NCBI GenBank assembly: GCA_041657885.1
Contig: JBBABB010000002.1
Span: forward strand, 25,483-89,482
From: Minisyncoccota bacterium
GTDB lineage: Bacteria > Patescibacteriota > Minisyncoccia > Phycocordibacterales > UBA9973
Length of the DNA stretch: 64,000 bases
Direction: 5' to 3'
Every line of letters begins with the position of its first letter. Position 1 is the stretch's first letter. Positions 7,031-60,711 of this stretch are shown one piece after another. The translations under genes and the position numbers were made by a program. The notes under the pieces are model-generated. The model did not search any database and was not told where the DNA came from. It was given only the letters and a program-made list of their open reading frames with translations.

Positions 7031-7128
7031 ATTTATCCCCACACCTATATTTCCATCAAAAATATATAACAGCAGGGTATTTTTACTAAAAAAGCAGAAT
7101 GATGGGAATATGGGTGTGGGGATTTATC
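7031..7128. repeat. P-family MITE-like element. TIRs atttatCCCCACACCTATATTTCCATC / GATGGGAATATGGGTGTGGGGatttatc.
   Basis: The inverted pair is visible. The inner sequence aaaaagcagaatgatgggaatat recurs in the copy at 20539-20683. Confidence 0.8.
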
Positions 7129-7207
7129 AAGATAAAATTAAACAAATCCGAACAATATGCCTTTGTACTAATTATCTAAGTAATTAAGCATCATGTCAAG
7201 GAGTTTT

Positions 7208-7350
7208 ACCCCCACACCCACTTTTTCATTGCTTTAATATTGTGCCATTAAAATATTCAGAAATATATAAAATATCTTTATAAATCAAGTATAAATAATA
7301 ATATTCCTAAAAAATAAAGCACAATGATGAAAAAGTAGGTGTGGGGGTTT
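7208..7350. repeat. P-family MITE-like element. TIRs CCCCCACACCCACTTTTTCAT / ATGAAAAAGTAGGTGTGGGGG with an AT-rich core of about 100 bp.
   Basis: A perfect inverted repeat of about 21 bp. Confidence 0.8.
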
Positions 7351-7360
7351 ATGCACTTTT

Positions 7361-7527
7361 TATCCCCACACCTATATTTTTATAGATTTTCATCTTTTAA
7401 ATAAAAAACTACTTAATTGGTATTTCTAATAAATTATCGCGTAAAAATAGACATTTTGTATTCAAAATAATAAAAATATAGGTGTGGGGATTTATCCCAC
7501 CTTGCCACCTATATTTTTATTGCAGGC
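7361..7527. repeat. P-family element (tatCCCCACACCTATATTTTtata ... AAAAATATAGGTGTGGGGATTTATC) plus an adjacent partial inverted fragment ccaCCTATATTTTTATTGCAGGC.
   Basis: Inverted TIRs are present. The 3' fragment shares TTTTTATTGCAGGC with the copy at 1209-1287. Confidence 0.75.
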
Positions 7528-7771
7528 TCCTTTTTATCCTAATTTTAAGTTGAAATAATGCCCTGCCGTCCTTTTTTAGAGACGATTCTCTTTTCCTTGC
7601 ATCACTCTCATCAAAATATGATTCATAATATCTAAGTTCAAAAGGACGACGACTTTTAGTGGAAAAAACTTTACCATTATTATGATCCGAGAGCCTGCGT
7701 CGTAAATCATTTGTTGAGCCAATGTAAATATTATTGTCTTTTTTACTTTTTAAAATATATAAGTAGAACAT
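7517..7771 (-). CDS. GIY-YIG nuclease-superfamily small protein (YhbQ/UPF0213-like, 84 aa).
   Basis: N-terminal motif YLYILKSKKDNNIYIGSTNDLRRRLSDHN is a classic GIY-YIG. The gene is flanked on both sides by same-orientation copies of the P-family TIR. Confidence 0.8.
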   Translation of the reverse strand: MFYLYILKSKKDNNIYIGSTNDLRRRLSDHNNGKVFSTKSRRPFELRYYESYFDESDARKRESSLKKDGRALFQLKIRIKRSLQ

Positions 7772-7800
7772 ATATTTATATTATATGATTTATGACTATA

Positions 7801-7826
7801 AAAATATAGGTGTGGGGATTTATCCA
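7801..7826. repeat. Solo P-family TIR (AAAATATAGGTGTGGGGATTTATCC). It contains a perfect DnaA-box-like nonamer TTATCCACA.
   Basis: Identical to the right TIR at 7473-7497. Confidence 0.7.
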
Positions 7827-7866: not shown

Positions 7867-8583
7867 TTGCTAATTTTTTATAAACCTTCAAAATTATTTA
7901 TGCAATCATTGAGATATTGCATTAATATACCATTTATGCTAGGATGTGGACTGGAGATTAGGTTAAACCTAAGTTCCAGTAGATATATGAATAATAAAGC
8001 TAAAAAAGGGGAATATTTAGACATTCTATTAAGATCAAAGAATAGCGTATTTTCAACGAAAGATATCGCTTTGCTTTGGCGTGATGTTCAAACAACGGCA
8101 TCGCAAGTAAGATTGAACTATTATGTTAAAGCTGGGAAGCTTATTAGAATTCGTAGAGGTATTTATGCAAAAGATAAAAATTATGATAAATATGAATTTG
8201 CGACTAAGATTTTTAGACCCTCATATATAAGTTTTGAAACTGTCTTAGGTGCATCTGGTATGACTTTCCAATATTATGGAAATATTTTTATTGCTTCATA
8301 TTTAAAGAGGGAGATTAAATGTGACGGACAAACTTATTCTTTTGTAAAAATGAAGGATTCTATTTTAAGTAACCCAAAAGGAATAGATCAAACAGGTGAA
8401 TATGCTATTGCTTCAAAAGAAAGAGCTTTCTTGGATACAATTTATAGAAGTAAAAAGTATTATTTTGATAATCATTCTCCGCTTGATTGGGATAAGGTAT
8501 TTGAAATGTTGCCAATTTATAATAATAAAAAAATGGCAAAAACTGTGCAAAAATATTATAAGGATTATAAAACTACTAAATAA
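7867..8583 (+). CDS. AbiEi-family type IV TA antitoxin / transcriptional regulator.
   Basis: wHTH region carries the LIRIRRGIYAK (RRG.Y) signature and the gene abuts the AbiEii-like gene downstream. The 5' end is uncertain. An internal ATG (MNNKAKKGEYLDILL) about 120 nt in is the likelier start. Confidence 0.65.
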   Translation: MLIFYKPSKLFMQSLRYCINIPFMLGCGLEIRLNLSSSRYMNNKAKKGEYLDILLRSKNSVFSTKDIALLWRDVQTTASQVRLNYYVKAGKLIRIRRGIYAKDKNYDKYEFATKIFRPSYISFETVLGASGMTFQYYGNIFIASYLKREIKCDGQTYSFVKMKDSILSNPKGIDQTGEYAIASKERAFLDTIYRSKKYYFDNHSPLDWDKVFEMLPIYNNKKMAKTVQKYYKDYKTTK

Positions 8584-8585
8584 AT

Positions 8586-9290
8586 ATGACATTAAATTAT
8601 CCAATACATAAAAATATTCTCGTACAGATACTTATTGATATTTACTCGGATACGACAATTAGCCCATATTTAGGTTTTAAAGGTGGAACGGCTGCTTATT
8701 TGTTCTATGGACTTGATCGTTATTCTGTTGACTTAGATATTGATATTTTAGATGAATCAAAAGAAGATTACATCTTTGAACAAGTTGAAAAAATAGGGAG
8801 AAAATATGGAGAAGTAAAAGAATCTCAAAAGAAAAGATTTAATCTAATATTTTTAATATCGTATGAGAATAAAGAAAAAAATGCTCAGAATATAAAAATT
8901 GAGATTAATCGTAGGTCTTTTGATTCAAAATATGAAGTTCGTGCCTTTAATGGTATTTCAATGCTTGTAATGGTCAAAGAAGATATGTTTGCTCATAAGC
9001 TTGTAGCCATGCACGAACGACTAGGAATAACTAATCGTGATATTTTTGATGTATGGTTTTTCTCAAAAAATAACTGGGAAATTAATAAAGAAATTATAGA
9101 AAAAAGAACAGGAATGTCATATAAAAAATTTCTTGAAGTATGCATTAAAGAATTAGAAAAGATGAATAATAACAATATTCTCCATGGTCTTGGTGAGCTT
9201 ATAACAGAAAAACAGAAAGCTTGGGTAAGATCAAAATTAAAACTTGAGACAATTTTACAACTAAAATTAAGATTAGAATCCGAAAATTAA
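8586..9290 (+). CDS. AbiEii/AbiGii-family nucleotidyltransferase toxin (DUF1814-like), 234 aa.
   Basis: Motif FKGGTAAYLFYGLDRYSVDLDIDI is the GGTAL..R.S.DID nucleotidyltransferase signature. Start lies 2 nt after the upstream stop. Confidence 0.7.
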   Translation: MTLNYPIHKNILVQILIDIYSDTTISPYLGFKGGTAAYLFYGLDRYSVDLDIDILDESKEDYIFEQVEKIGRKYGEVKESQKKRFNLIFLISYENKEKNAQNIKIEINRRSFDSKYEVRAFNGISMLVMVKEDMFAHKLVAMHERLGITNRDIFDVWFFSKNNWEINKEIIEKRTGMSYKKFLEVCIKELEKMNNNNILHGLGELITEKQKAWVRSKLKLETILQLKLRLESEN

Positions 9291-11965: not shown

Positions 11966-12121
11966 ATTTAATAAATTATTAATAATAAACTAACTACTTA
12001 CAATTATATCATCTCCATTGACTAATTAAAAGCATTGCGGTAACATTACCTATGTAAGTCCGTTCTCGAACCGGGCTTTTATTTTTAGAAAAATAAGGAG
12101 CAAGGCGACTATATTTTTCTT

Positions 12122-12171
12122 ACCCCCACACCTACTTTGGGATTCAATTATCAAAGTAGGTGTGGGGATGG
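12122..12171. repeat. Short P-family hairpin (ACCCCCACACCTACTTTG ... CAAAGTAGGTGTGGGGAT) in the divergent promoter / 5' leader region of nusA.
   Basis: A 17-bp inverted repeat with the same CCCCACACCTA core as the other P elements. Confidence 0.75.
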
Positions 12172-15760: not shown

Positions 15761-16903
15761 ATGGATACTATGAAAACAACAATAAAAAAATTAGAAAAAA
15801 GCGAAATAGAAATAGTGGGCTCTATAGAAGTCGCTGAATTTGAGAAATATGAGGGCAAAGCGCTCGAAAGAATCGGCGAGCGCCTTGAACTTCCTGGTTT
15901 TCGAAAAGGGAAAGCCCCGAGTGGAATTGTGAAAGAAAACGTTCAAGAAATGGAACTATTGGAAGAAACGGCAGAGCTTGCATTGATGGATAATTATATG
16001 AAAATCTTGGAAGAGAATAAGATAGATGCTATCGGTCGTCCACAAATCGCAATTACAAAAATCGGAAAGGGTTCTGACCTAGAATTCAAAATCGTCACTG
16101 CTGTTCTTCCAGAAATGAAACTTCCTGATTATAAAAAAATTGCAAAAGAACAAAGTGGAAAAGAGGACAACAAGCGAGAAATTATTGTTGATGAAAAAGA
16201 TGTAGAAAAAGTAATTCTTGACCTTCGCAAAATGCGAGCTGAGCAGGCTCGTGGTAGTAATCATGTTGGCCATGAGAACATGACAGAAGAACCTGCCCGC
16301 CCTCACGATCATTCGGGAGCAGGCGGGGAACATGCAAAAGCCCATGCTGAATCTGCCTCATCGGCAGATAAAATTCCAGAAAGTGAATACCCTATTTTTG
16401 ATGATGCATTCGCAAAAACTTTTGGTGACTTCAAAGATGCTGGGGCATTCAAAGAAAAAATTCGCAGTAATATAAAAATAGAAAAGGAAACCGAGCAGAA
16501 AGACAAACTGCGCCTTGTGATAGTGGAAGAGCTAGTGAAACTAACCGAAGGAGAAATTCCTGAGATTTTAATAGAAAGTGAGATAGATAAAATAATGTAT
16601 CGGCTAGAAGCAGACATCACAAATGCTGGATTAAAACTAGAAGATTATTTAAAACAAATAAATAAAACCGATGCGGATTTGAGAAAAGAATGGCGAGCAG
16701 ACGCAGAGAAACGCGCGAAACTTCAAATGATAATCCATACAATCTCTGAAAAAGAAAATCTAAAACCAACCGAAGAAGAAATTGTAAAAGACGTTACACA
16801 AATCACAACTATGTACAAAGATGCCGACCCCACTCGTGCTCGTTCGTACGTAGAACAAATGTTAGAAAATGAGAAGGTGTTTAAGTTTTTAGAAACACAA
16901 TAA
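15761..16903 (+). CDS. tig: Trigger factor.
   Basis: N-terminal PGFRKGKAP signature. Carries an in-frame GC-rich insertion encoding [13 protein letters not shown] at 16291-16331. Confidence 0.88.
16291..16331. repeat. GC-rich hairpin element, family D (CCTGCCCGCCCTCAC..ATTCGGGAGCAGGCGGGGA), in-frame inside tig.
   Basis: A near-identical copy sits at 44398-44441 in the helicase C-terminus. Both encode ARPH..SGAGGE. Confidence 0.75.
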
Positions 16904-17627: not shown

Positions 17628-18704
17628 ATGCTACAATTAGTGCAACAAATGATTAAATTAACAGAAAGACAAAAAAAAATATTAGGATTTATAACAGAAA
17701 ATACCCAAATCGGTATCTCAGAAATTCTTGAGTTTATAAACAAAAATGAGTTAGAAATTACTCGTTTTTCTATTATCCGTGATTTAAATATACTTATTGA
17801 GAATAACCTAGTAAAAAAAGTGGGTGGTGGCCGTTCTACAAAATATACACCAAAGGAAAATGATACTCTCCATAAATATATTGATATTGATGATTATTTC
17901 AAAAAACCACAAGATGAGAGGGTTCTTATCTCAAAAAACTTTGAATTTAACATTTTTGAAAAAATAAATAATTTATTTACAAAAGAACAACTAGAAAAAA
18001 TAAACGTTCTTAACAATAAATTTAGAGAAAATATAAATAAAATTTCTCCGACCATAAAAAAACTAGAAATGGAGAGATTTATCATAGAATTATCTTGGAA
18101 ATCATCGCAAATAGAAGGAAATACTTACTCGCTGCTGGATACAGAATATTTAATCAAAAATAAAATTGAAGCTGAAGGACATAAAAAAGAAGAAGCCATT
18201 ATGATTTTGAATCATAAAATTACTTTAGATTTTATAAATAAAAATACTTCTTATTTCAAATCAATATCTATAAAAAAAATAGAGGAGCTACATAAACTTA
18301 TAACGGAAGGATTAGGAGTCAATCATGGAATTAGAAAATCTCCAGTCGGGATTACGGGGACAAATTATATTCCGCTTGATAATGAATATCAGATAAAAGA
18401 AGCTATAAAAAAAATGACTGAGAGAATAAACAAAGAAGTAGATCCAATTATAAAAGCATTCCTATCTTTATCTATTATTTCTTATATACAACCATTTGAA
18501 GACGGAAATAAGAGAACAGCGCGACTACTCGCAAATGCGATACTTATCGCTCACAATTACTGCCCACTATCATACAGAAGCGTCAAAGAGGTTGATTATA
18601 AAAAAGCAATTTTAGTGTTTTATGAGTCTCACAATCTTGATCCACTAAAAAGAATGTTTGTTGAGCAATTTGAATTCGCTATTAAAAATTATTTTAGAAA
18701 ATAA
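17628..18704 (+). CDS. Fic/Doc-family protein with an N-terminal wHTH. Its core motif is the non-canonical QPFEDGNKRTAR.
   Basis: Fic fold motif .PF.DGN.R..R is present, but the catalytic His is Gln and the second Gly is Lys, which is Doc-like. wHTH: LTERQKKILGFITENTQIGISEILEFI. Confidence 0.75.
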   Translation: MLQLVQQMIKLTERQKKILGFITENTQIGISEILEFINKNELEITRFSIIRDLNILIENNLVKKVGGGRSTKYTPKENDTLHKYIDIDDYFKKPQDERVLISKNFEFNIFEKINNLFTKEQLEKINVLNNKFRENINKISPTIKKLEMERFIIELSWKSSQIEGNTYSLLDTEYLIKNKIEAEGHKKEEAIMILNHKITLDFINKNTSYFKSISIKKIEELHKLITEGLGVNHGIRKSPVGITGTNYIPLDNEYQIKEAIKKMTERINKEVDPIIKAFLSLSIISYIQPFEDGNKRTARLLANAILIAHNYCPLSYRSVKEVDYKKAILVFYESHNLDPLKRMFVEQFEFAIKNYFRK

Positions 18705-20538: not shown

Positions 20539-20683
20539 CTTGCCCCCACACCTATATTCCCATAGCTTTTATTCTGTTAAGCAAAATTCCTAATCATTTC
20601 ATATTTTTGATTGAATTATAGAGTTATAACCTTTTTTTATTGAAAAAGCAGAATAATGGGAATATAGGTGTGGGGGCTTGTAT
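20539..20683. repeat. P-family MITE-like element. TIRs cttgCCCCCACACCTATATTCCCAT / ATGGGAATATAGGTGTGGGGGcttg.
   Basis: A perfect inverted repeat of about 25 bp. Internal sequence is homologous to the copy at 7031-7128. Confidence 0.85.
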
Positions 20684-23847: not shown

Positions 23848-25407
23848 ATGCAAACAAACAATTTTAAAATCCCCAAATATGTTACACATGTAACATCCAC
23901 TCTCGAAAAAGCCGGTTTCGAGGCTTTTCTAGTTGGTGGGTGTGTTCGTGATCTAATTATGAGTAGAGAACCGAAGGATTGGGATATTACAACTAATGCC
24001 AAACCAGAAGAGATAATCCCTCTATTTGAAAAGACTATATATGAAAATAAATTTGGAACTGTCGGAGTAGTTCTCCCCCTTACCCCTCCGGCTTCCAGCC
24101 ACCTCCCCTTAGCAGGGGAGGAAAAAACCATAGTAGAAGTTACGCCATACCGAACTGAGGCAAAATATAGTGATTTTAGGCATCCAGATGAAGTTAAATT
24201 CAGCGACAACATAGAAGACGACTTAAAAAGACGTGATTTTACAATAAATGCAATGGCTTACGCGCCCGCCATAGCTTCAGCAAAGGAAGGTAATTTTTCT
24301 AAAGGACATCTCATTGACCTTTATAAAGGACAAGAGGATATAAAGGACAAAGTAATTAGGACAGTGGGAGCCCCAAAAGACAGGTTCAATGAAGATGCTC
24401 TTCGCATGCTTAGAGCAGTTAGATTGTCAACTCAACTCAATTTTGCAGTTTCATATGAAACCATGCAGGCCATTTCTGACGGCGCAGAACTGATTAAAAA
24501 CATATCTTTTGAAAGAATCCGCGATGAATTTACTAAGATTATAATGTCTAACGACCCTGTGGTGGGAATTGGCCTTCTTTCTAAATTAGGACTCCTAAAA
24601 CACATTATTCCTGAATTAGAAGAGGGAGTTGGCTGTGAGCAAAAGGGTGAGCATATATATGACGTTTGGGAGCACTTACTTCACGCCCTTGATCATGCTG
24701 CCCAAAAGGGGTGGTCTCTGGAAGTTAGACTCTCGGCCTTGTTTCATGACATTGGCAAACCCAGGTCTAGAAGAAAGGGGGAGAAAAAGGCCTATACTTT
24801 CTATGGGCATGAAGTAATTGGCTCACGAATGACCCAAAAGATTATGGAGCGCCTAAAATACCCAAAGGAGACAACGGAAATGGTCATTCGTTTCACGAGA
24901 AACCATATGTTCTTCTCTGATACTGAGAAAATAACCCTTTCGGCCGTCCGTCGTATCGTTCAACATGTTGGACCCTCCGACGCTAAAGCTATGGCGGGCA
25001 AAGAAGAAAATCATCCTATCTGGGACCTTATGAAAGTTCGTGAATGTGATAGGGTAGGGATGAAAAAGAAAGAAGCCCCTTATCGCCTAAGGAAATACCA
25101 CGCTATGATTGAAGAAGTTCTTCATGACCCGATATCTGTCGGCCAACTTGCAATTGATGGGAAAATAATGATAGAGGAGTTACACATGAAACCCGGACCA
25201 AGAATGGGGTGGATTTTGAATGCACTTCTTGAGGAAGTTCTGGATGACCCAACTAAAAATACGGCTGAACATCTATCCGAACTTGTAAAATCTCTAGATA
25301 TGCTCGGCGACGCGGAACTTAAAACGCTAGGGGAGAGAGGAAAAGAGAAAAAAGATGAACTTGAGAAAGAAGAAGTAGAAAAGCTCCACAAAAAGCACGG
25401 AGTATAA
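23848..25407 (+). CDS. cca: CCA-adding tRNA nucleotidyltransferase with a C-terminal HD domain.
   Basis: GGCVRDLIMSREPKDWDITT head motif, RRDFTINAMAY, HD motif LFHDIGKP. Contains an in-frame GC-rich family A insertion (..LPLTPPASSHLPLAGEE..). Confidence 0.9.
   Translation: MQTNNFKIPKYVTHVTSTLEKAGFEAFLVGGCVRDLIMSREPKDWDITTNAKPEEIIPLFEKTIYENKFGTVGVVLPLTPPASSHLPLAGEEKTIVEVTPYRTEAKYSDFRHPDEVKFSDNIEDDLKRRDFTINAMAYAPAIASAKEGNFSKGHLIDLYKGQEDIKDKVIRTVGAPKDRFNEDALRMLRAVRLSTQLNFAVSYETMQAISDGAELIKNISFERIRDEFTKIIMSNDPVVGIGLLSKLGLLKHIIPELEEGVGCEQKGEHIYDVWEHLLHALDHAAQKGWSLEVRLSALFHDIGKPRSRRKGEKKAYTFYGHEVIGSRMTQKIMERLKYPKETTEMVIRFTRNHMFFSDTEKITLSAVRRIVQHVGPSDAKAMAGKEENHPIWDLMKVRECDRVGMKKKEAPYRLRKYHAMIEEVLHDPISVGQLAIDGKIMIEELHMKPGPRMGWILNALLEEVLDDPTKNTAEHLSELVKSLDMLGDAELKTLGERGKEKKDELEKEEVEKLHKKHGV
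24076..24127. repeat. GC-rich element, family A copy (reverse complement), in-frame within cca.
   Basis: Reverse complement ggttttTTCCTCCCCTGCTAAGGGGAGGTgGCtgGAAgCCGGAGGGGTaagggg matches 1294-1337 and 59572-59666. Confidence 0.75.
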
Positions 25408-42434: not shown

Positions 42435-44456
42435 ATGCGATATCTTGATTCTTTGAATGAAAAACAAAAAGAGGCAGTTCTTTATACGGATGGGCCTCTT
42501 TTGATTGTAGCTGGGGCTGGAGCAGGGAAGACGAAAACATTGACTCACCGAATAATTCACCTTATCCACAAAGGAGTAAACCCGAGCTCAATATTGGCAG
42601 TAACCTTTACAAATAAGGCCGCAAAGGAAATGCGGGATAGGGTTATGGGATTGTTGGAAGATAGGGAGCATGGAGTTAGTGCGCCCGAGCGAAGCGAGGG
42701 CGCCCCATTCGTCTCCACCTTTCACTCACTTGGGGTTCATATTATAAAAGAAAATTCTCATTTGATAGGTTTGAATAAATATTTCACGATTATAGACGAG
42801 AGCGATGCGCTGAGCATCATCAAAAGCATAATGAAAGAACGCGACATAGATACAAAACAACATGAGCCAAGAAAAATAAAATCAATTATTTCAAAGTCAA
42901 AAGGTGACTTTATTACAGTAGATACATTTAGTGCCAATGCAAAAAGTGCTGTGCAAAGTATCGTCGCAATGATTTGGCGAGATTATGAAGCAAGATTGAA
43001 AAAAGAAAAAGCATTGGACTTCGACGATTTACTTCTTGAGACAGTTTTGATTTTAAAAAAATATCCGGAGATAAAACAAAAATATCAAGAGGAGTGGAAA
43101 TATCTTCATATAGATGAGTACCAAGATACGAACGAAGTTCAATATGAAATGACAAAACTTTTAGTCGGAAAAGAAGAAAATATTTGTGTTACGGGAGATT
43201 GCGATCAATGTGTGTATTCATGGCGAGGTGCTAGCATCAAAAACATGTTGCACTTTGAAAAAGATTATCCAAACGCCAAGATAGTAATACTCGAACAAAA
43301 TTACCGCTCAACAAAAAATATTATTGAAGCGGCAAATAGTGTTATTGAGAAAAATGTTTATCGCGTGCCTAAAATTTTATTTACGGAAAATGTGAAAGGG
43401 GAGGAGATTACGATTTGCGAAGCTTATGATGAACAAAGTGAAGCAATATTTGTGGTAAAAAAGATAGACGAATTTTTAAAAGAAAATAATCCCGAAGATA
43501 TCGCGATACTTTATCGTGCAAACTTTCAATCAAGAGTTTTAGAAGAGGCATTACTTGATAAACAAATTCCTTATCAAGTACTTGGAGTAAAATTCTTTGA
43601 ACGAAAAGAAATTAAAGATTTGCTCGCATACATTCGCCTCTCTTACAATAAAGAAAGTTTGTCGGACATAAAAAGAATAATAAATATTCCAACTCGTGGA
43701 ATAGGGAAGACCACAATCGCAAAACTTTTTGCGGGGACTACAAATGATTTACCAAAAGGAATGCAAATAAAAATTGGAAAATTCTATGAGCTTGTTGACG
43801 GCATACGATTGTATATTGACTCTCATAAACCATCTGAATCTGTGAAATACGTGATAGAGAAAAGTGGACTAAAAGAGGAGCTTTCTCACGGCACGAGCGA
43901 CGAACAAGAACGCTTGGAAAATATGATGGAATTGGTAACTTTAGCTATAAAATATGACAATATTCCAGACGGTGAAGGAATGGAAAAACTACTTGAAGAT
44001 GCATCTCTTGCAAGCGACCAAGACACTCTGATGCACCCCATTAAAAACCGCGAGGGATCACAAGGACCCTCTGTTTCTAACGGGACAGGTAAGGGAAATG
44101 GCGTGAAGTTAATGACAGTGCATGCATCGAAAGGTCTTGAGTTTAAATATGTTTTCATCACGGGGCTTGAACAAGATTTATTCCCACATACAAAAGGAAA
44201 TTCAAAAACAAAAGAAGACAACGAGGAAGAGAGAAGATTATTTTACGTGGCCGTCACTCGAGCAAGGGAAAAATTATTTTTATCTTATGCATCACTCCGA
44301 ACAATTTTTGGAATGAAACAAGTGAACAGCCCAAGCGAATTCATTTACGATATTCCCGCACACTTAACAATTTTTGAACAAGCATATTCTTCAAGGGGAC
44401 CTGCCCGCCCTCACAAAGATTCGGGAGCAGGCGGGGAGAAAGTGGTGTATTTATAG
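42435..44456 (+). CDS. pcrA: UvrD/PcrA-family ATP-dependent DNA helicase.
   Basis: Motif I AGAGAGKTKTLTHR, Ia TFTNKAAKEM, II LHIDEYQDTN, plus later motifs. The C-terminus carries a family D insertion (..ARPHKDSGAGGEKVVYL). Confidence 0.92.
   Translation: MRYLDSLNEKQKEAVLYTDGPLLIVAGAGAGKTKTLTHRIIHLIHKGVNPSSILAVTFTNKAAKEMRDRVMGLLEDREHGVSAPERSEGAPFVSTFHSLGVHIIKENSHLIGLNKYFTIIDESDALSIIKSIMKERDIDTKQHEPRKIKSIISKSKGDFITVDTFSANAKSAVQSIVAMIWRDYEARLKKEKALDFDDLLLETVLILKKYPEIKQKYQEEWKYLHIDEYQDTNEVQYEMTKLLVGKEENICVTGDCDQCVYSWRGASIKNMLHFEKDYPNAKIVILEQNYRSTKNIIEAANSVIEKNVYRVPKILFTENVKGEEITICEAYDEQSEAIFVVKKIDEFLKENNPEDIAILYRANFQSRVLEEALLDKQIPYQVLGVKFFERKEIKDLLAYIRLSYNKESLSDIKRIINIPTRGIGKTTIAKLFAGTTNDLPKGMQIKIGKFYELVDGIRLYIDSHKPSESVKYVIEKSGLKEELSHGTSDEQERLENMMELVTLAIKYDNIPDGEGMEKLLEDASLASDQDTLMHPIKNREGSQGPSVSNGTGKGNGVKLMTVHASKGLEFKYVFITGLEQDLFPHTKGNSKTKEDNEEERRLFYVAVTRAREKLFLSYASLRTIFGMKQVNSPSEFIYDIPAHLTIFEQAYSSRGPARPHKDSGAGGEKVVYL
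44398..44441. repeat. Family D GC-rich hairpin element, in-frame at the helicase C-terminus.
   Basis: gaCCTGCCCGCCCTCACaaagATTCGGGAGCAGGCGGGGAgaa, about 90% identical to 16291-16331 in tig. Confidence 0.75.
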
Positions 44457-44589: not shown

Positions 44590-45477
44590 ATGATTCATAA
44601 AGCGAAAAAATCAATGGGGCAGAATTTTCTTAAGTCCAAACCGGCACTCAATATGATGTGCGAGGCAGGAGAGGTAAATAACTCCGATACTATTCTTGAA
44701 ATTGGTCCGGGGAAAGGAGTACTGACAGAAAAACTTTTAGAAAAGGCGGGGAAGGTGATAGCGATTGAAAAAGACCGAGAACTATTTGAATTTTTAAAAG
44801 AAAAATTTGGAGAAGAAATAAAAAATAAAAAATTAATTTTATTAAATGAAGATATATTACAGTTTGAGTTCCCCTCCCCTTTGGGGAGGGCTGGGGAGGG
44901 GTTCCTAATTAAGAACCTCCCCTCATTCCCCTCCAAAGGAGGGGAGGAAATCAATTCTTATAAAATCATCGCCAACATTCCGTATAATATTACCGGCTCA
45001 ATTTTAAAAAAGTTTCTATCTTGCGAGAATCAACCAGAAAGAATGGTTCTCTTAGTGCAAAAAGAAGTCGCGGAAAGAATTGTCACTCGCGATGGCAAAG
45101 AAAGTATTTTGTCACTAAGCGTGAAGGCATACGGGACTCCGAAATACATAATGAAGGTTCATAAGCGATTTTTCTCACCAGCTCCTAAAGTAGATTCGGC
45201 TATTATTGCAATCAATAATATTTCTAGACAGAATTTTCATACAAAAAATGAAGAAAATGTGTTTTTTGGCTTGGTTAAAACAGGTTTTGCTCACAAAAGA
45301 AAAGTTCTTCGTAAAAATCTGGAAACTAAGGAAGTCGGACCCTCCTCGTCGGCGGGCATGCTTCCAAAGATTGATGAGATTTTTGAAAAATTAGGAATTA
45401 ATCCGAATGCTCGCGCCGAGGATATCAAGTTCGAAAAATGGCTTCTGATTTCTCGTCTTTTATCCACAGATATCTAG
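44590..45477 (+). CDS. rsmA: 16S rRNA (adenine1518/1519-N6)-dimethyltransferase RsmA/KsgA, with an in-frame insertion of about 27 aa.
   Basis: MGQNFLKS, EIGPGKGVLT, NIPYNITG. The family B palindrome encodes EFPSPLGRAGEGFLIKNLPSFPSKGGEEI just before the NIPYNI motif. Confidence 0.9.
   Translation: MIHKAKKSMGQNFLKSKPALNMMCEAGEVNNSDTILEIGPGKGVLTEKLLEKAGKVIAIEKDRELFEFLKEKFGEEIKNKKLILLNEDILQFEFPSPLGRAGEGFLIKNLPSFPSKGGEEINSYKIIANIPYNITGSILKKFLSCENQPERMVLLVQKEVAERIVTRDGKESILSLSVKAYGTPKYIMKVHKRFFSPAPKVDSAIIAINNISRQNFHTKNEENVFFGLVKTGFAHKRKVLRKNLETKEVGPSSSAGMLPKIDEIFEKLGINPNARAEDIKFEKWLLISRLLSTDI
44868..44949. repeat. Family B GC-rich palindromic element of about 82 bp, in-frame inside rsmA.
   Basis: TTCCCCTCCCCTTTGGGGAGGGCTGGGGAGGGGTTCCTAATT | AATTAAGAACCTCCCCTCATTCCCCTCCAAAGGAGGGGAGGAA. 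An intergenic reverse-complement copy lies at 56449-56540. Confidence 0.85.
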
Positions 45478-55483: not shown

Positions 55484-56449
55484 TTGTTTAAACAAAATTA
55501 TAATCATATGGAAACAGAAATAGAAGAAATAATAAAACAACAATTGGAATATTTACCAAAAGAGATTGTGGATCTTTTTACTAATCCAAAATTAAGTGAT
55601 AAAATATTTGAAATAGGAAAAGAAAATAAAATTAATATTGAACAGTTAGATATTTTTCAAACTGAAACCTTCTTATTGATATTAGGGTTAACTAATTCTG
55701 ATGAGTATGAAGAGGAGTTGAGAAATAAGTTAAATATAAATAAAGAAACTATAGATAATATAAAAAAGGGGATATATTCATTTATCTCAAATGAAACACT
55801 GGAAAAAATTAAAGAAATATATAAACAAACAACAAACGAGATCTTTGAGGGAGGGGACCCAGACATAGACAAACCACTTATTTTAGATCCTCGTTTCGAA
55901 AATGCCCCACAAGAAACTCAGAAAGCTATTGCTAAATCAGGATGGAAAGAGAGGTTGTATTCAATCGCACCAATATATAAACTCAATGTTGAACAAATGG
56001 GAATTTTGGAAGAAACTACCATAAAAGTAATACTTGGTGAAATACACCCAGACAAATATGAAGATGAATTAGCTTCCAAAATAACAATACCAAAAGAAGA
56101 TGTCGCAAATCTTGTAATTGATATCAATGAAAAAATTTTTAAAGTAATACGCGGGGTAGAAAAGAAATATTGGGATAAAGAAAAAACAATTACAAATGAA
56201 GATGAAATTCCTCTTCCTCCATATGCAAAAATAATTAATAATGAAGATGAAATTCCTCTTCCTCCTCCTAGTATCAAACTTGATACAAAAATAATAGAAA
56301 AAACTGAACTAATTCAACCAATTATTGGAATAACAAATACTCCTCAAAATATAATAGAGGAAAAATTAAAGGGTGTAACAGTAAGTGACCATACGGTATC
56401 AGACCATTCATTACCTAAAATGAATGACCCTTATCGGGAAACGATTTAA
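55484..56449 (+). CDS. Hypothetical soluble protein (321 aa) with a tandem NEDEIPLPP repeat.
   Basis: ORF. The 45-bp direct DNA repeat at about 56196-56270 encodes the duplicated peptide. Confidence 0.5.
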   Translation: MFKQNYNHMETEIEEIIKQQLEYLPKEIVDLFTNPKLSDKIFEIGKENKINIEQLDIFQTETFLLILGLTNSDEYEEELRNKLNINKETIDNIKKGIYSFISNETLEKIKEIYKQTTNEIFEGGDPDIDKPLILDPRFENAPQETQKAIAKSGWKERLYSIAPIYKLNVEQMGILEETTIKVILGEIHPDKYEDELASKITIPKEDVANLVIDINEKIFKVIRGVEKKYWDKEKTITNEDEIPLPPYAKIINNEDEIPLPPPSIKLDTKIIEKTELIQPIIGITNTPQNIIEEKLKGVTVSDHTVSDHSLPKMNDPYRETI

Positions 56450-56540
56450 TTCCTCCCCTCCTTACCAAGGAGGGGAATGAGGGGAGGTTCTTAATTAATT
56501 AGGAACCCCTCCCCAGCCCTCCCCAAAGGGAAGGGAATCC
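56449..56540. repeat. Family B GC-rich palindromic element, intergenic copy (reverse complement of the rsmA copy).
   Basis: TTCCTCCCCTCCTTaccAAGGAGGGGAATGAGGGGAGGTTCTTAATTAATTAGGAACCCCTCCCCAGCCCTCCCCAAAGGGaAGGGAA. Confidence 0.85.
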
Positions 56541-56565: not shown

Positions 56566-56976
56566 ATGCAATTCAAAGTCCCACAATTTATTGATATCGA
56601 GGACAAATTATTTGGCCCTTTTACTTTCTTTCAGTTTGTATACCTTGTGGGAGGAGCTGGAATAGTGTTTGTCATATATAAAATTTTCCCTTTGTGGATT
56701 GGTATTTTTCTTATTATTCCAGTTGCTATATTATCTGTCCTGCTTGTCTTTTATAGAATAAACGGAAAACCTTTTATTTATTACCTTCAGGCTGGAGCTA
56801 GTTATCTCGTTTCAAGTAAATTGTATATATGGAAGCAGAGATTAATAAATCCAAATAGCAAGAAAAAAGAGGAGGAAGCACAAGCTCCACAAATGGTTTC
56901 GGTCATTCCGATGACATCAAATGACAAATTGAGAGACATATCTTGGAGTTTGGATGTGGAAGGGAAGGAGAAGTAA
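56566..56976 (+). CDS. Small two-TM membrane protein (136 aa), candidate VirB3/PrgI-like T4SS component.
   Basis: Two adjacent hydrophobic helices. The position just upstream of the VirB4-like ORFs is inferred from gene context. Confidence 0.45.
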   Translation: MQFKVPQFIDIEDKLFGPFTFFQFVYLVGGAGIVFVIYKIFPLWIGIFLIIPVAILSVLLVFYRINGKPFIYYLQAGASYLVSSKLYIWKQRLINPNSKKKEEEAQAPQMVSVIPMTSNDKLRDISWSLDVEGKEK

Positions 56977-57734: not shown

Positions 57735-59570
57735 ATGTCAATATTTTCAAATTTATTAGGAAAAAAGAATAACATCTCTAAAAACAAGAGCATGGTTATG
57801 CCTGTTTTACCAAGTGAAATATATAAAGCGGCAGCACTTGAACTTCAGGATATTATCGCTCCATCAGCTCTTCAGATAACTCCAAGGTCACTAAACCTCG
57901 GAGACAAAATAGCAAGAACATTCTTTGTAATATCATATCCACGGTATCTTAGTGATAATTGGTTCTCTCCAATTATAAATTTGGATAAGGTTTTTGATGT
58001 ATCTATTTTTATCCACCCTATTGACACAGCAGAAATATTGAGAACATTTCAGAAGAAAGTAGCCGAGGTTCAGAGTCAAATCTCTGTTCGTGAATCAAGG
58101 GGGCTAGTGCGAGACCCAATGCTTGATACTGCATACCAAGACCTTGAAAATTTACGAGATAATCTTATGCAAGCTCAAGAGAAAATGTTTAATGTTGGTC
58201 TTTATATCACAGTTTATGCTGAGAATGATAACGATTTATTTAAAATTGAAAATGAAATTAAATCTCTTCTTGAATCAAAACTCATCTATCTAAAGCCAGC
58301 ACTATTTCAGCAGGCTGAAGGATTTAAAAGTGTTATTCCTTTAGGAACAGACGTGCTAGGTATTCACCAAAAACTCAACACTGAACCACTTTCAAGTATT
58401 TTCCCATTCGTCTCTTTTGACTTAACTGATGATAAAGGAATATTGTATGGGGTCAATCGCCACAATTCTAGCTTGATTCTTTTTGATAGATTTTCCCTCC
58501 CAAACTACAACTCCATAATTTTTGCAACTGCTGGAGCTGGTAAATCTTATGCCGCTAAATTAGAAATTATTCGTACTTTAATGTTTGACACAGAAGTTAT
58601 CGTCATAGACCCAGAGCGTGAATACGAATATCTAGCTGAAGCAGTAGGAGGTAGATATTTTAACATCGCTCTTTCTTCCGACCACCATATAAATCCTTTT
58701 GAATTACCTATTCCCACAGGAGATGAAACAGGGGCAGATGTTCTCCGCTCAAATACTATAAATCTTGTAGGGTTGTTCCGCATAATGCTTGGAGGATTAA
58801 CACCAGAAGAAGATTCTATTATAGATAGTGCTATCACAGAGACATATGCCTTAAAAGATATTACCGCGGAGTCAGACTTTAGAAATATTGAGGTTCCATT
58901 ATTAACGGACTTTGAGATGGTTCTCTCTGGAATGGAGGGAAGCGATTCGCTTGTCCAGCGCTTGACCAAATATACTCACGGGTCTTGGGCATCATTTTTA
59001 AACCAACCATCAAACGTTGATATCAACCGAAAATTTATAGTTTTCTCTGTCAGAGATATGGAGGATGAACTAAAACCTGTAGCAATGTATATTGTTACTC
59101 ATTATATTTGGAATTCTATTCGTAAAAATATTAGAAAAAGATTACTTGTAGTAGATGAGGCCTGGTGGATGATGAAATCAGAAGATACTGCATCGTTCCT
59201 CTATTCTATTGCTAAAAGAGGACGAAAATACTGGCTAGGACTTGCAACTATTACTCAAGACGTAGGGGATTTTATGAAAAGCGCTTATGGCATACCTATT
59301 ATTACTAACTCTTCTATTCAATTACTTCTAAAACAGTCCCCAGCAACAATAGATGTCTTACAAAAAACATTCAGTCTTACAGAGGAAGAGAAATATTTGC
59401 TGTTAGAGGCAAATGTTGGAGAAGGTATCTTTTTTGTTGGCCTAAAACACGTTGCAGTTAAAACAATCGCTTCTTATACCGAAGACCAAATTATCACATC
59501 TGACCCTTCACAAATTTTGGCTATCAAAAAAGCAAAAGGGGAATTATTGGCGGCGGGGAGTAGTAATTAG
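57735..59570 (+). CDS. VirB4/TraC/ConE-like T4SS ATPase, C-terminal motor portion (611 aa).
   Basis: Walker A FATAGAGKSYAAK, Walker B LLVVDEAWWMM. Walker A sits about residue 265, so about 200 N-terminal residues appear to be supplied by the preceding ORF. Confidence 0.85.
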   Translation: MSIFSNLLGKKNNISKNKSMVMPVLPSEIYKAAALELQDIIAPSALQITPRSLNLGDKIARTFFVISYPRYLSDNWFSPIINLDKVFDVSIFIHPIDTAEILRTFQKKVAEVQSQISVRESRGLVRDPMLDTAYQDLENLRDNLMQAQEKMFNVGLYITVYAENDNDLFKIENEIKSLLESKLIYLKPALFQQAEGFKSVIPLGTDVLGIHQKLNTEPLSSIFPFVSFDLTDDKGILYGVNRHNSSLILFDRFSLPNYNSIIFATAGAGKSYAAKLEIIRTLMFDTEVIVIDPEREYEYLAEAVGGRYFNIALSSDHHINPFELPIPTGDETGADVLRSNTINLVGLFRIMLGGLTPEEDSIIDSAITETYALKDITAESDFRNIEVPLLTDFEMVLSGMEGSDSLVQRLTKYTHGSWASFLNQPSNVDINRKFIVFSVRDMEDELKPVAMYIVTHYIWNSIRKNIRKRLLVVDEAWWMMKSEDTASFLYSIAKRGRKYWLGLATITQDVGDFMKSAYGIPIITNSSIQLLLKQSPATIDVLQKTFSLTEEEKYLLLEANVGEGIFFVGLKHVAVKTIASYTEDQIITSDPSQILAIKKAKGELLAAGSSN

Positions 59571-59571
59571 A

Positions 59572-59666
59572 TACACCCCCTCTGCTTTTAGCATCTCCCC
59601 CTTCGCAGGGGGCGAGGAATTCTTCCTCCCTTGCGAAGGGGAGGTGTCCAAAGGACGGAGGGGTGA
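59572..59666. repeat. Family A GC-rich element, full two-armed palindromic copy of about 95 bp.
   Basis: ACACCCCCTCTGCTTTTAGCATCTCCCCCTTCGCAGGGGGCGAGG-aattc-TTCCTCCCTTGCGAAGGGGAGGTGTCCAAAGGACGGAGGGGTG. Confidence 0.8.
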
Positions 59667-59730
59667 ATCAAATTATAGGTTGTTAGAGAAGCAGGATTAT
59701 TATATAATATATAAAGTGAAATTTACAAAA

Positions 59731-60711
59731 ATGAAAATCTTTCTCGTCGGATTTTTTATTCTGGGGATAATAAATATCCCTTATATTTCTTCAGCTGAAA
59801 TGCAAATTGAAGTGCAGGAAGGAGAAATAAACGTGGAAACAAGTCCAAACAATCCACAACCATACCAAGATGTAACAATCAATCTATCTAGTTATGCAAC
59901 CGATTTAAACAAAGCAACAATAATGTGGCAAGCGGAATCGGGAGTTGTTCTATCTGGGATAGGTAAAACGAGTTATTCTTTTAAAGCTCTAGGCCCAAAT
60001 ACCATCACTGTTTTTAATATCAGTGTTACCCCAGCAGGCTCTATGAACACAATAAATAAGAGGGTGGTTATTGCTCCATCTGAAATTGAAGTTATGTGGG
60101 AATCTGCTGACGGATATACTCCGCCTTTTTATAGAGGGAAGTCTCTTCCAATTAGTGGTGCAGTGATAAGAGCTGTGGCAATTCCAAATACAAACACAAT
60201 AAAATCTGGTAGTGGAAGTATTACCTATACGTGGAAAAATGGTGACAACACAGTACTTGAAGCTTCTGGATATAATAAAAATGCTTATGTATTTAAAAAT
60301 AGTATGTTTGATGAGAAAAATACGATAACGGTAATCGCTTCGTCAGTCAGTGGGGATTATGGGGCAGAAAACACAATAGATATACCACTCTATCAACCTA
60401 AAATAATTTTTTATAAAAAATCACCAACAGATGGTGTTCTTTATAATAAAGCTCTTGATAAAGAAACTGCTATGCCTGAAGATGAAATGACAATCGTGGG
60501 TGAACCATATTTTTTATCTATCAAAGGGAAAGAAGGTTCTTTTAATTACAACTGGAAAATAAATGGGAGTAGTATACAAACACCAACAAAGAAAACAGAA
60601 TTAACAATAAGGCCAAATTCTCGTGGAGGATATGCTACTATAAGTTTAGTAATTGAAAATATAAATGAATTATTCCAAAGTGTTAGTAATCAGCTAAAAA
60701 TCAATCTTTAA
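59731..60711 (+). CDS. Secreted beta-rich protein with Ig-like modules (about 326 aa from ATG 59731).
   Basis: Signal peptide MKIFLVGFFILGIINIPYISSA. The ORF-track start at 59452 is a spurious extension through the GC-rich repeat. Confidence 0.6.
   Translation: MKIFLVGFFILGIINIPYISSAEMQIEVQEGEINVETSPNNPQPYQDVTINLSSYATDLNKATIMWQAESGVVLSGIGKTSYSFKALGPNTITVFNISVTPAGSMNTINKRVVIAPSEIEVMWESADGYTPPFYRGKSLPISGAVIRAVAIPNTNTIKSGSGSITYTWKNGDNTVLEASGYNKNAYVFKNSMFDEKNTITVIASSVSGDYGAENTIDIPLYQPKIIFYKKSPTDGVLYNKALDKETAMPEDEMTIVGEPYFLSIKGKEGSFNYNWKINGSSIQTPTKKTELTIRPNSRGGYATISLVIENINELFQSVSNQLKINL

Follow-up and report, generated by a model that had tools for sequence, protein, structure and literature searches.

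A GC-rich palindromic repeat in frame in rsmA of a Minisyncoccota bacterium, its dispersed relatives, and DUF559 as a candidate partner nuclease

Described palindromic repeats and the insert in rsmA

In-frame selfish palindromes have, to our knowledge, been seen until now as essentially Rickettsia-specific. They are described there as Rickettsia palindromic elements (RPEs), families RPE-1 to RPE-10 (Ogata et al. 2000, 2002, as summarised in PMC10969869), and a 2024 review regards in-frame palindromes outside Rickettsia as still "conceivable" (PMC10969869). In this study, we analyzed a stretch of 64,000 nt from a Minisyncoccota bacterium (contig JBBABB010000002.1; hereafter the window), a member of the Candidate Phyla Radiation (CPR; Patescibacteria), whose rsmA (ksgA) gene contains a GC-rich palindrome in frame. 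This insert likely derives from a dispersed palindromic repeat of the non-autonomous kind, of which it is a decayed copy compatible with the frame; the genic copies of the repeat would be translated, and its partner enzyme would be a DUF559 endonuclease. No account of such elements in CPR was found in the searchable literature, in line with the original prediction, made from the sequence alone, that they are uncharacterized in these bacteria.

Among the other systems that come close, the repetitive extragenic palindromic (REP) sequences with their doublet form, the REPINs, and the associated RAYT transposases are well described (Nunvar 2010; Bertels and Rainey 2011; PMC3116915, PMC3337134); it was a single-copy gene flanked by the arms of dispersed palindromic doublets that first tied RAYTs to REPs (PMC3116915, PMC3337134). 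Intragenic copies fusing to open reading frames (ORFs) are known for inverted-repeat transposable elements of miniature size (MITEs), namely ERIC, Correia/NEMIS, Coxiella QMITE1, and Anabaena MITEs (PMC10969869, PMC5896051), and organelles harbor the yeast mitochondrial GC clusters and "byp" elements as well as coding palindromes in the mitochondria of Nematomorpha (PMC6649704).

The closest relatives of the RsmA protein of the window are encoded by metagenome-assembled genomes (MAGs) of Candidatus Pacebacteria/Paceibacterota, and the Pfam domain RrnaAD covered residues 3–290 in one stretch (E=7e-56). The original prediction had placed an 82-bp two-armed GC-rich palindrome into this gene, in AT-rich surroundings. 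The surroundings are indeed AT-rich, with a GC content of 30–41% per 2 kb in the window and of 36% for rsmA, and the palindrome is present, though its exact extent is 81 nt (44869–44949), read as TTCCCCTCCCC-TTT-GGGGAGGG-CT-GGGGAGGGGTTCC-TAATTAAG-AACCTCCCCTCA-TT-CCCCTCC-AAA-GGAGGGGAGGAA. As anticipated, it keeps the frame and adds 27 codons before the NIPYNI motif inside an uninterrupted ORF of 295 aa. The GC-rich inverted arms were also confirmed, but as a conserved structure three hairpins (H1–H3, Table 1) fit better than one long one. RNA folding of this genic copy resulted in −52.4 kcal/mol (z=−3.05), a value which one of 200 shuffled sequences reached as well.

The second copy in the window, predicted as an intergenic reverse-complement twin at 56449–56540, lies on the opposite strand and between genes as stated, but extends from 56450 to 56537 (88–89 nt) and differs from the rsmA insert by two 4-nt indels, one in the centre (TAATTAATTAAG vs. 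TAATTAAG) and one in a loop. BLASTn aligned both copies over 67 nt at 92.5% identity (E=1e-21) and over another 14 nt at 100%, and a repeat search revealed two arms, one of 41 nt (98% identity) and one of 29 nt (100%). Since the family profile described below scored the twin with 80 bits on the minus strand and 38 bits on the plus strand, it represents a reverse-complement copy. Its centre contains stop codons in all frames and it is less decayed than the insert in rsmA, whose centre is 4 nt shorter and hence open in the rsmA frame; the insert nevertheless matched the profile over model positions 2–93 (E=2e-18). In a related strain (L136/L104), the ortholog of the twin displays the canonical 94-nt form, so that the twin in the window appears to have decayed in place.

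RsmA was the one host protein modelled, using AlphaFold (AF2) on the ortholog alignment, with a mean predicted local distance difference test (pLDDT) score of 82 and a predicted template modelling (TM) score of 0.80. Values of pLDDT below 50 were restricted to residues 1–9, 96–119 (the insert), and 249–257 (a second, smaller insert). Residues 96–119 revealed no secondary structure and are located between strand 82–85 and strand 125–129, which leads into NIPYNI. Foldseek comparison with KsgA structures resulted in E-values down to 1e-25 and target-normalised TM scores of 0.82–0.87 for compact KsgAs, and the alignment with KsgA of B. subtilis showed a gap across the insert. A surface loop of the KsgA fold had been proposed as its location, and the model agrees with this, displaying a disordered insert of low confidence and a confident remainder. 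Judged from the model, the rsmA insert looks like a tolerated surface-loop insertion that leaves the rest of the KsgA fold intact.

Of 121 close RsmA proteins, 85 showed a plain loop of 8–16 residues without any insert, e.g., DFNPTTYYLLPAT, between DIL.F and YKIIANIPYNI, which is what the original prediction expected of orthologs. The palindrome found in the window (type A, ..PLLRGGxGRGELIKNLPSxPSLVRRGG..) was present in ten proteins, and 16 carried a type B insert (..FKFSSGPRMREDEEPDHSxNLK..) encoded by a palindrome of c. 100 nt, whose arms are AT-rich and which is unrelated to type A. Shortened remnants were detected in several further orthologs, and RsmA P0036 contains a permuted relative of type A. 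The loop hosts at least two unrelated palindromic families with a patchy distribution; in a neighbor-joining tree calculated without the loop, type A appeared in at least six and type B in at least eight places. At the DNA level, an identical insert was found at the same codon in the closest ortholog (L001), none in L002, and a 90-nt relative with differing flanking codons in L004, whose RsmA is 73% identical. The insert was GC-rich in every carrier looked at, contrary to the AT-rich coding in orthologs that had been named as a possible refutation.

Near-identical proteins revealed how quickly this loop changes. Outside the loop, RsmA P0003 (type A) is 98.4% identical to P0018 (type B), and their DNA differs by an exchanged block of c. 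108 nt that includes 14 nt to the left of the palindrome; since this non-palindromic flank is swapped as well, the exact ends of the element are not readable from this pair. P0025 and P0031 (93.9% identity) differ by a 28-residue deletion of type B. Such swaps and deletions indicate a rapid turnover of the loop, part of which looks, from the sequences compared, like recombinational replacement and not like clean insertion.

That the 27 residues form an old, vertically inherited loop of RsmA, with the intergenic likeness being secondary (e.g., by a piece of rsmA being copied out), would account for the insert shared by the window and L001 and for the same type of element in the same loop of RsmA proteins only 69–75% identical, but we consider it very improbable. 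The orthologs without insert include P0002, which is 84% identical to RsmA of the window outside the loop and closer to it than some carriers; the carriers occupy the separate places on the tree mentioned above; and the same GC-rich DNA, set in a gene of low GC content, occurs at more than 50 unrelated loci, in nine other gene families, and in three reading frames. The original prediction had named an assembly artefact as a possible refutation. An artefact of assembly or sequencing (e.g., a chimeric join or an error of the poly-G type) could be suspected, as low-complexity palindromes rich in G or in C pose difficulties for both steps and many contigs bearing the element or a DUF559 gene are short. 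However, assemblies that differ in sample and in pipeline contain the same insert at the same codon, namely the window and JGI 3300028032 (L001/L125), and the insert of P0017 was recovered from ENA ERZ27249449, Logan SRR6484324, NCBI JBAYKP01, and JGI Ga0172379. Moreover, the reading frame is kept, the arms co-vary, and related repeats exist in finished isolate genomes, including E. coli K-12, so that an artefact is hardly conceivable.

The start of rsmA revealed another kind of element. At the N-terminus of seven RsmA proteins (P0008, P0014, P0048, P0052, P0069, P0098, and P0120; locus L137, 1501–1600), LNKFSxENLSPDFSFH is inserted between two copies of (H)KAKKSxG; in the DNA, c. 20 nt are directly duplicated on the two sides of an AT-rich palindrome. 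Unlike type A, this element is accompanied by a duplication.

A dispersed repeat family with copies in open reading frames

Scanning of one genome per species with the pattern AACCTCCCCTCANNCCCCTCC resulted in 78 loci with the core pattern, and the CPR-specific core was found at 52 metagenome loci. CPR (Paceibacterota, Nomurabacteria, and other Patescibacteria) contributed 52 distinct element contexts, and a profile census of the retrieved loci revealed 63 distinct full-length copies. Viral contigs scanned with the core pattern gave no match, and there is thus no sign of a phage vector. The canonical form comprises 94 nt, TTCCCCCTCCCC-TTACTAA-GGGGAGGG-TT-GGGGAGGGGTTCC-TAATTAATTAAG-AACCTCCCCTCA-AT-CCCCTCC-TTGGTAA-GGAGGGGAGGAA, with two inverted arms of about 40 nt, each consisting of a hairpin and a tail, around an AT-rich centre, TCCTAATTAATTAAG, that is closed in all frames. 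The hairpin sequence varies (CCCCTCCCC, CCCTCTCC, CCCTCTCTCC), and the family includes partial copies consistent with hairpin-mediated deletions.

Alignment of 45 distinct copies showed the three-hairpin structure to be 95.7% paired, and H3 97.8%. In H1, compensatory pairs were detected, pair 10–22 being UA in 29 and CG in 15 copies and pair 6–27 being CG in 37 and UA in six; double-change cells numbered 21, compared to 6.3 expected, and none of 500 shuffles reached 21. The informative result is the covariation in H1, given that the search pattern had predetermined the left arm of H3 and that the aligned copies are related to each other. A single long hairpin, considered as the conserved structure, was rejected, as it was 90.2% paired and displayed no more covariation than shuffled alignments.

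Vsr-type enzymes act at T:G mismatches. In the H2 stem, one G.T (G.U) position (44894 with 44924; columns 34–68 of alignment A4) was invariant in 45 of 45 copies, and it is pure speculation that it could matter for the DUF559 nuclease discussed below. In a Nitrospinaceae MAG (L028, 1500–4300), nine hairpins of the type CCCCTCC-TTnnnAA-GGAGGGG were counted in 5.8 kb, filling the intergenic regions, which makes the hairpin module abundant in a phylum other than CPR. Single hairpins were furthermore found in frame in the C-terminal sorting domain of the type IX secretion system in two species of Ignavibacteria (L059, c. 7090–7130, and L082, c. 7240–7290), in opposite orientations at the same turn between ..IxYTIP and VxLKVYD, and in TsaD of a gammaproteobacterial MAG (L040, c. 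4460–4500), and in-frame tolerance is therefore not confined to CPR.

A copy was regarded as genic if it lay in an ORF with at least 50 open codons on each side. Based on this definition, 16 of the 63 full-length copies are genic and in frame, in ORFs of ten gene families, and the other 47 are intergenic, which answers the proposed count of genic versus intergenic copies. Besides RsmA, the named hosts are UvrB, ArgRS, TopA (twice), the NAD-ligase LigA, TGT, an RluA-type pseudouridine synthase, UvrC, and MurD, and the Pfam domains of the host proteins either flank or span the insert. The genic copies are evenly split between both orientations (eight and eight). Out of six possible frames, three are in use, and their peptides bear no relation to each other (..LIKNLPSxPSLVRRGG, ..RTSPHSPPYQGGEE, and PPLLTKEGNEGRFLINSP..). 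In each of the 16 genic copies, the centre is altered (to GAATTAATTAAG, TCCTAATTAAG, or another variant), and the canonical stop-containing centre was never genic; among the 47 non-genic copies, 24 have no open frame out of six. When at least 100 codons were required on both sides, 11 copies were read through in frame and one was a possible frame-breaking split, a doubtful candidate on a contig with 51% GC. Such a filter on frame and stops would be expected if the genic copies are translated, but not if they are spliced out or bypassed. Peptides covering the junctions and the insert of RsmA should then be ..ILQFEFPSPLGR, AGEGFLIK, NLPSFPSK, and ..GGEEINSYK. A concatenated three-frame peptide profile run against 5.8 billion sequences gave three matches at E≤1e-3, their small number being due to the shortness of the matches, and led to the protein P0123.

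GC-rich mobile hairpins of AT-rich mitochondrial genes get bypassed. The insert in rsmA could analogously be excised from the mRNA or skipped by the ribosome, as in byp elements or T4 gene 60; it forms a very stable hairpin in an AT-rich message, and the GAG codon just before it and a second GAG two codons before its end can be read as take-off and landing codons. The element indeed resembles the yeast GC clusters, byps, and nematomorph palindromes in being a GC-rich or palindromic mobile hairpin in coding genes of an AT-rich genome. However, byps are bypassed and need not be open, so that frame and stops should be irrelevant, whereas openness is enforced in the bacterial element, whose genic copies are all open and whose closed copies are all intergenic. 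The copy in L004 has different flanking codons, and Rfam searches around 44869–44949 yielded only generic below-threshold hairpin (miRNA-precursor) matches and no intron-like family. Bypass or excision is accordingly quite improbable.

Slightly less improbable, but still unlikely, is a cis-acting structure of benefit to the host (terminator, mRNA stabiliser, carrier of a ribosome-binding site (RBS), G-quadruplex (G4), or pause site), with the genic copies as exapted regulatory hairpins. The local hairpins are kept by compensatory changes, the twin in the window occupies just the gap from a stop codon to the following start, an open frame comes immediately downstream of 18 copies, a canonical G4 motif (GGGGAGGGCTGGGGAGGGG) is found in the left arm, and the arm ends AAGGAGGGGAGGAA are Shine-Dalgarno-like and placed 8–25 nt upstream of the DUF559 start codon. 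Yet the distance from the end of the element to the next start ranges from −1 to 57 nt without a peak at Shine-Dalgarno spacing, for which reason a mobile RBS was dropped as a general function. Nor does a T-run follow the hairpins, genes carry the element in either orientation, and most orthologous sites lack it and copies decay.

Like RPEs, the element is palindromic, non-autonomous, and dispersed in a small AT-rich genome, with no known transposase in either case, and it has copies in frame in unrelated housekeeping genes, with peptides compatible with the host fold. It differs in its length of 81–94 nt (RPEs: c. 100–150), its strongly GC-rich composition, and its three short hairpins. In addition, it uses three frames, whereas RPE families are described as encoding a conserved peptide, and its CPR hosts are free-living or episymbiotic, with relatives of the element in many phyla and an association with a DUF559 gene. 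The RPE-like behavior put forward in the original prediction is thus supported as an analogy, by in-frame genic copies, the loop site, and dispersal, but not as family membership; in our judgement it is composition, length, and host phylum, rather than alignment, that set the CPR element apart.

DUF559 nuclease genes between repeat arms

A summary of Pfam domains in ORFs beside hairpins outside CPR listed DUF559 and MTES_1575 three times. The peptide-profile match P0123 is also a DUF559 protein, its C-terminal tail being the element read in frame. In the loci retrieved by pattern, six of six DUF559 genes (from Paludibacter, Bdellovibrionales, Bacteroidota, Nitrospina, and two CPR contigs) were found within about 100 nt of a hairpin unit. 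For an independent sample, CPR DUF559 genes were retrieved by protein alone (524 homologs at E≤1e-10; loci L139–L155), and the flanks in the retrieved loci were searched with an element profile built only from pattern-ascertained copies. The right arm was located 8–25 nt upstream of the DUF559 start codon in five of six independently retrieved contexts, and in six of six the left arm lay at the stop codon or extended over it, sometimes running into a full element. E-values of the flanks ranged from 1e-8 to 1e-27 (L147, 1e-11/3e-9; L154, 6e-8/1e-8; L153, 2e-22; L139, 8e-8, with singlet arms at the gene ends; L117, 7e-9/3e-27), and four loci outside CPR showed the same association. Among 120 DUF559 homologs, 24 have a C-terminal tail consisting of H1 read in frame, and many more end in ..ELNSPSP* on the C-rich arm. 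The DUF559 gene is flanked by the arms of the element in a fixed orientation.

The gene is single-copy and syntenic, occurring as MetRS-x-DUF559-TatD-RpsF-SSB in three species and in another context in a fourth, and thus does not resemble an insertion sequence (IS). Its product matches PDB 3HRL ("endonuclease-like protein", E=6e-20) and the E. coli YcjD family, whose proteins have been predicted to be Vsr-related PD-(D/E)XK nucleases (PMC1189080). A single-copy gene flanked by repeat arms is the signature that linked RAYTs to REPs, which makes DUF559 a candidate partner, possibly involved in copying or maintaining the repeats. A link between DUF559, YcjD, or Vsr-like proteins and such repeats was not found in the searchable literature. 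The DUF559 protein P0176 and the genic copy of L131 may belong to the same contig, as both are listed on a contig of 61,402 nt.

In its construction, the element resembles REPINs, being a doublet of inverted short imperfect palindromes that form a larger hairpin, with singlet arms at gene ends, a vertically inherited single-copy gene flanked by the repeat, and no target-site duplication. However, the flanked gene encodes a DUF559/Vsr-like PD-(D/E)XK nuclease and not an HUH Y1 transposase (PF01797), copies seem to occur in tens and not in hundreds, and about one quarter of the full copies (16/63) lie in frame within genes, in contrast to REPs, which are defined as extragenic (PMC12306157). For its genic copies and its different gene, we do not assign it to the REPs. 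With MITEs it shares the short, non-autonomous, inverted-repeat form and occasional in-frame fusions. Since MITEs have terminal inverted repeats matching a parent IS and target-site duplications, and neither was found here, it is not a MITE either; transposase families were absent among the neighbors of the copies. Altogether, the CPR element behaves as an RPE, is built as a REPIN, and is in our judgement a member of neither.

A similar arrangement was noticed in E. coli K-12, where ycjD ends in ..ELNRRSPSP* on TCACCCTCTCCCTGA, as the CPR genes end in ..ELNSPSP* on TCACCCTCTCCTTAA. About 180 nt downstream of ycjD, we found CCCCTCGCCCCTCTGGGGAGAGGGTTAGGGTGAGGGG, which contains a 19-nt core, GGAGAGGGTTnGGGTGAGG, identical to the CPR left arms (matched by none of 200 shuffles). 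The adjacent 66-mer is dispersed: among 5,426 E. coli genomes, it was found at a median of 16 places per genome and at 29 at most. By its copy number it fits the catalogued BoxC family (56 bp, about 22–32 copies; PMC2267715), to which it probably belongs. The repeat thus shares with the CPR element the core of the left arm and the position next to a DUF559 gene whose ORF terminates in the same C-rich hairpin arm. When E. coli genomes were searched directly with the CPR element by BLAST, no significant match was obtained (E=10). Between ycjD and the BoxC-like repeat (L156, 8250–8400), a degenerate duplicate of the last c. 40 nt of ycjD (GAGACGGTGCTGGAGAATATTCGGCAAGGTCTGAACCG..) suggests a past rearrangement at the 3' hairpin.

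In the scenario we favor, copies of the element would land or be copied throughout CPR genomes, and genic copies would persist only with a centre free of stops, a net length that preserves the frame, and a position in a permissive surface loop, as may be the case in RsmA between the strand after the S-adenosylmethionine-binding motifs and the NIPY strand. Survivors would be transcribed and translated as disordered loops of about 27–31 aa rich in Pro, Gly, Ser, Arg, and Glu. The peptide itself is probably functionless, since different proteins tolerate the same DNA in three frames; it would instead be the local DNA or RNA hairpins on which selection or the copying mechanism acts. Later, small hairpin-mediated deletions would turn copies into ordinary loop residues. 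Mobility would be provided in trans by the single-copy DUF559 (YcjD/Vsr-like PD-(D/E)XK) endonuclease, whose own flanks are the two arms of the element.

Several observations weigh against this scenario. No target-site duplication was found for k=2–8 nt at all offsets in 60 copies compared with the shuffled expectation, and no Y1/RAYT-like ORF near the copies in 138 loci, a weak result as phmmer was run with approximate IS200/YafM queries. Copy number is modest, with two copies in the window and five exact-pattern copies in MAG JBAYKP01. Presence/absence polymorphism of the type A family between near-identical genomes was not caught, and the change between P0003 and P0018 looks, by its exchanged flank, like a recombination-type block replacement rather than a clean insertion. 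Although the insert is identical in 81 of 81 positions between the window and L001, with 90.6% identity in the rest of rsmA, it lies within an identical run of 256 nt, and a special sequence constraint on it was therefore dropped. We infer translation from open frames. The window itself contains no DUF559 gene, the flanks of DUF559 genes could be the gene's own RBS hairpin and terminator, and the likeness of the E. coli repeat consists of the 19-nt core and its context, the full profile giving E=0.045.

Beyond the scenario for CPR, we put forward, tentatively and with clearly less confidence, that GGGGAGG/CCCCTCC hairpin repeats may form a pan-bacterial superfamily with DUF559 (YcjD-type, Vsr-like PD-(D/E)XK) endonucleases as its cognate enzymes. 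The superfamily may unite the CPR doublets, the BoxC-like repeat of E. coli, and the single hairpins of Nitrospinota, Ignavibacteria, Bacteroidota, Planctomycetota, and others. It would then represent a second system of a repeat plus a domesticated nuclease, independent of RAYTs, and one that seeds translated loops in essential CPR proteins.

Further palindromes in the window and consequences for CPR proteins

Several other palindromic families were identified in the window (Table 1). The 21-nt second insert in rsmA sits exactly in the loop of a 15-nt mini-palindrome, GGAAGTCnGACTTCC, which encodes EVGLP and is uninterrupted in the closest ortholog L001, missing in L002, and present twice in L004; judged from the sequence, it is a nested insertion into a hairpin loop. 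The same mini-palindrome also occurs in a MurD region (L021/L123). The palindrome at the C-terminus of the UvrD-like helicase has a sister copy in frame in the trigger factor gene (16283–16351), both belonging to a family CCTGCCCGCCCTCAC..ATTCGGGAGCAGGCGGGGA with the peptide PARPH.(D/H)SGAGGE. A second helicase insert, REGSQGPSVSNGTG (c. 44080–44120), is likewise in frame, GC-rich, lineage-specific, and absent from L002 and L004. The hairpin in the head domain of the CCA-adding enzyme represents a third family, with related copies at 1289–1336 and 59617–59664 (within 59580–59671), one of them at the start of ORF 59452–60711 and one intergenic. In addition, about 11 copies of an AT-flanked GGTGTGGGG/CCCCACACC repeat (ATAAAAATATAGGTGTGGGGATTTATC) were noticed (1207–1288, 7102–7825, 12120–12157, and 20540–20675), often as inverted pairs and apparently all intergenic.

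Table 1. Positions of the rsmA insert, its twin, and other palindromic features in the window
Feature	Position	Strand	Description
rsmA/ksgA host gene	44590..45477	+	295 aa, stop codon included; single uninterrupted ORF, all motifs, two in-frame GC-rich inserts
rsmA insert	44869..44949	+	81 nt = 27 codons, TTCC...GGAA, residues F94-E120, peptide FPSPLGRAGEGFLIKNLPSFPSKGGEE
Hairpin H1 (left arm)	44871..44890	+	CCCCTCCCC-TTT-GGGGAGGG, read from the sequence
Hairpin H2	44893..44925	+	G-rich tail GGGGAGGGGTTCC 44893-44905, AT-rich centre TAATTAAG 44906-44913, C-rich tail AACCTCCCCTCA 44914-44925
Hairpin H3 and terminus (right arm)	44928..44949	+	CCCCTCC-AAA-GGAGGGG-AGGAA; H3 proper 44928-44944
Second rsmA insert	45340..45360 (within 45318-45377)	+	21 nt CCCTCCTCGTCGGCGGGCATG, C-terminal domain, other family, pLDDT <50 at residues 249-257
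Intergenic twin	56450..56537	-	Directly after stop of ORF 55484-56449, ends 28 nt before ATG at 56566; profile E=8e-23
GC-rich palindrome, UvrD-like helicase C-terminus	44387..44444	+	In frame, peptide SRGPARPHKDSGAGGE; absent from helicases of L002 and L004
GC-rich hairpin, CCA-adding enzyme head domain	24055..24129	+	In frame; third family TTCCTCCCCTgcTAAGGGGAGG..GGACGGAGGGGT

Apart from these repeats, the window displays the gene content of an ordinary CPR chromosome, including NusA, H+-pyrophosphatase, trigger factor, ClpP, RNase Y, HU, the CCA-adding enzyme, a XerC/D-type recombinase, PNPase, the UvrD-like helicase, large secreted proteins, and a TraG/VirB4-like ATPase cluster. No transposase was found among the domain matches of its proteins, and Rfam at gathering thresholds revealed four tRNAs and nothing else in the whole window. 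An AbiEi/AbiEii toxin-antitoxin pair (7867–9287) and a Fic-domain protein (17628–18701) are ordinary accessory genes unrelated to the rsmA insert.

RPE-like behavior is now seen in CPR/Patescibacteria, with several families within one 64-kb window, and it affects core information-processing enzymes, namely RsmA, UvrB, UvrC, UvrD, TopA, LigA, ArgRS, TGT, and the CCA-adding enzyme. If the link to DUF559 is true, it would provide a first function for a very widespread domain, including E. coli YcjD, and would explain an old orphan repeat family of E. coli, which would offer a tractable model for the elements of uncultivated bacteria. For the annotation and structure prediction of CPR proteins, unexplained GC-rich loops of low confidence may originate from such elements, which bears on protein-length and indel statistics in CPR and on the origin of new protein loops.

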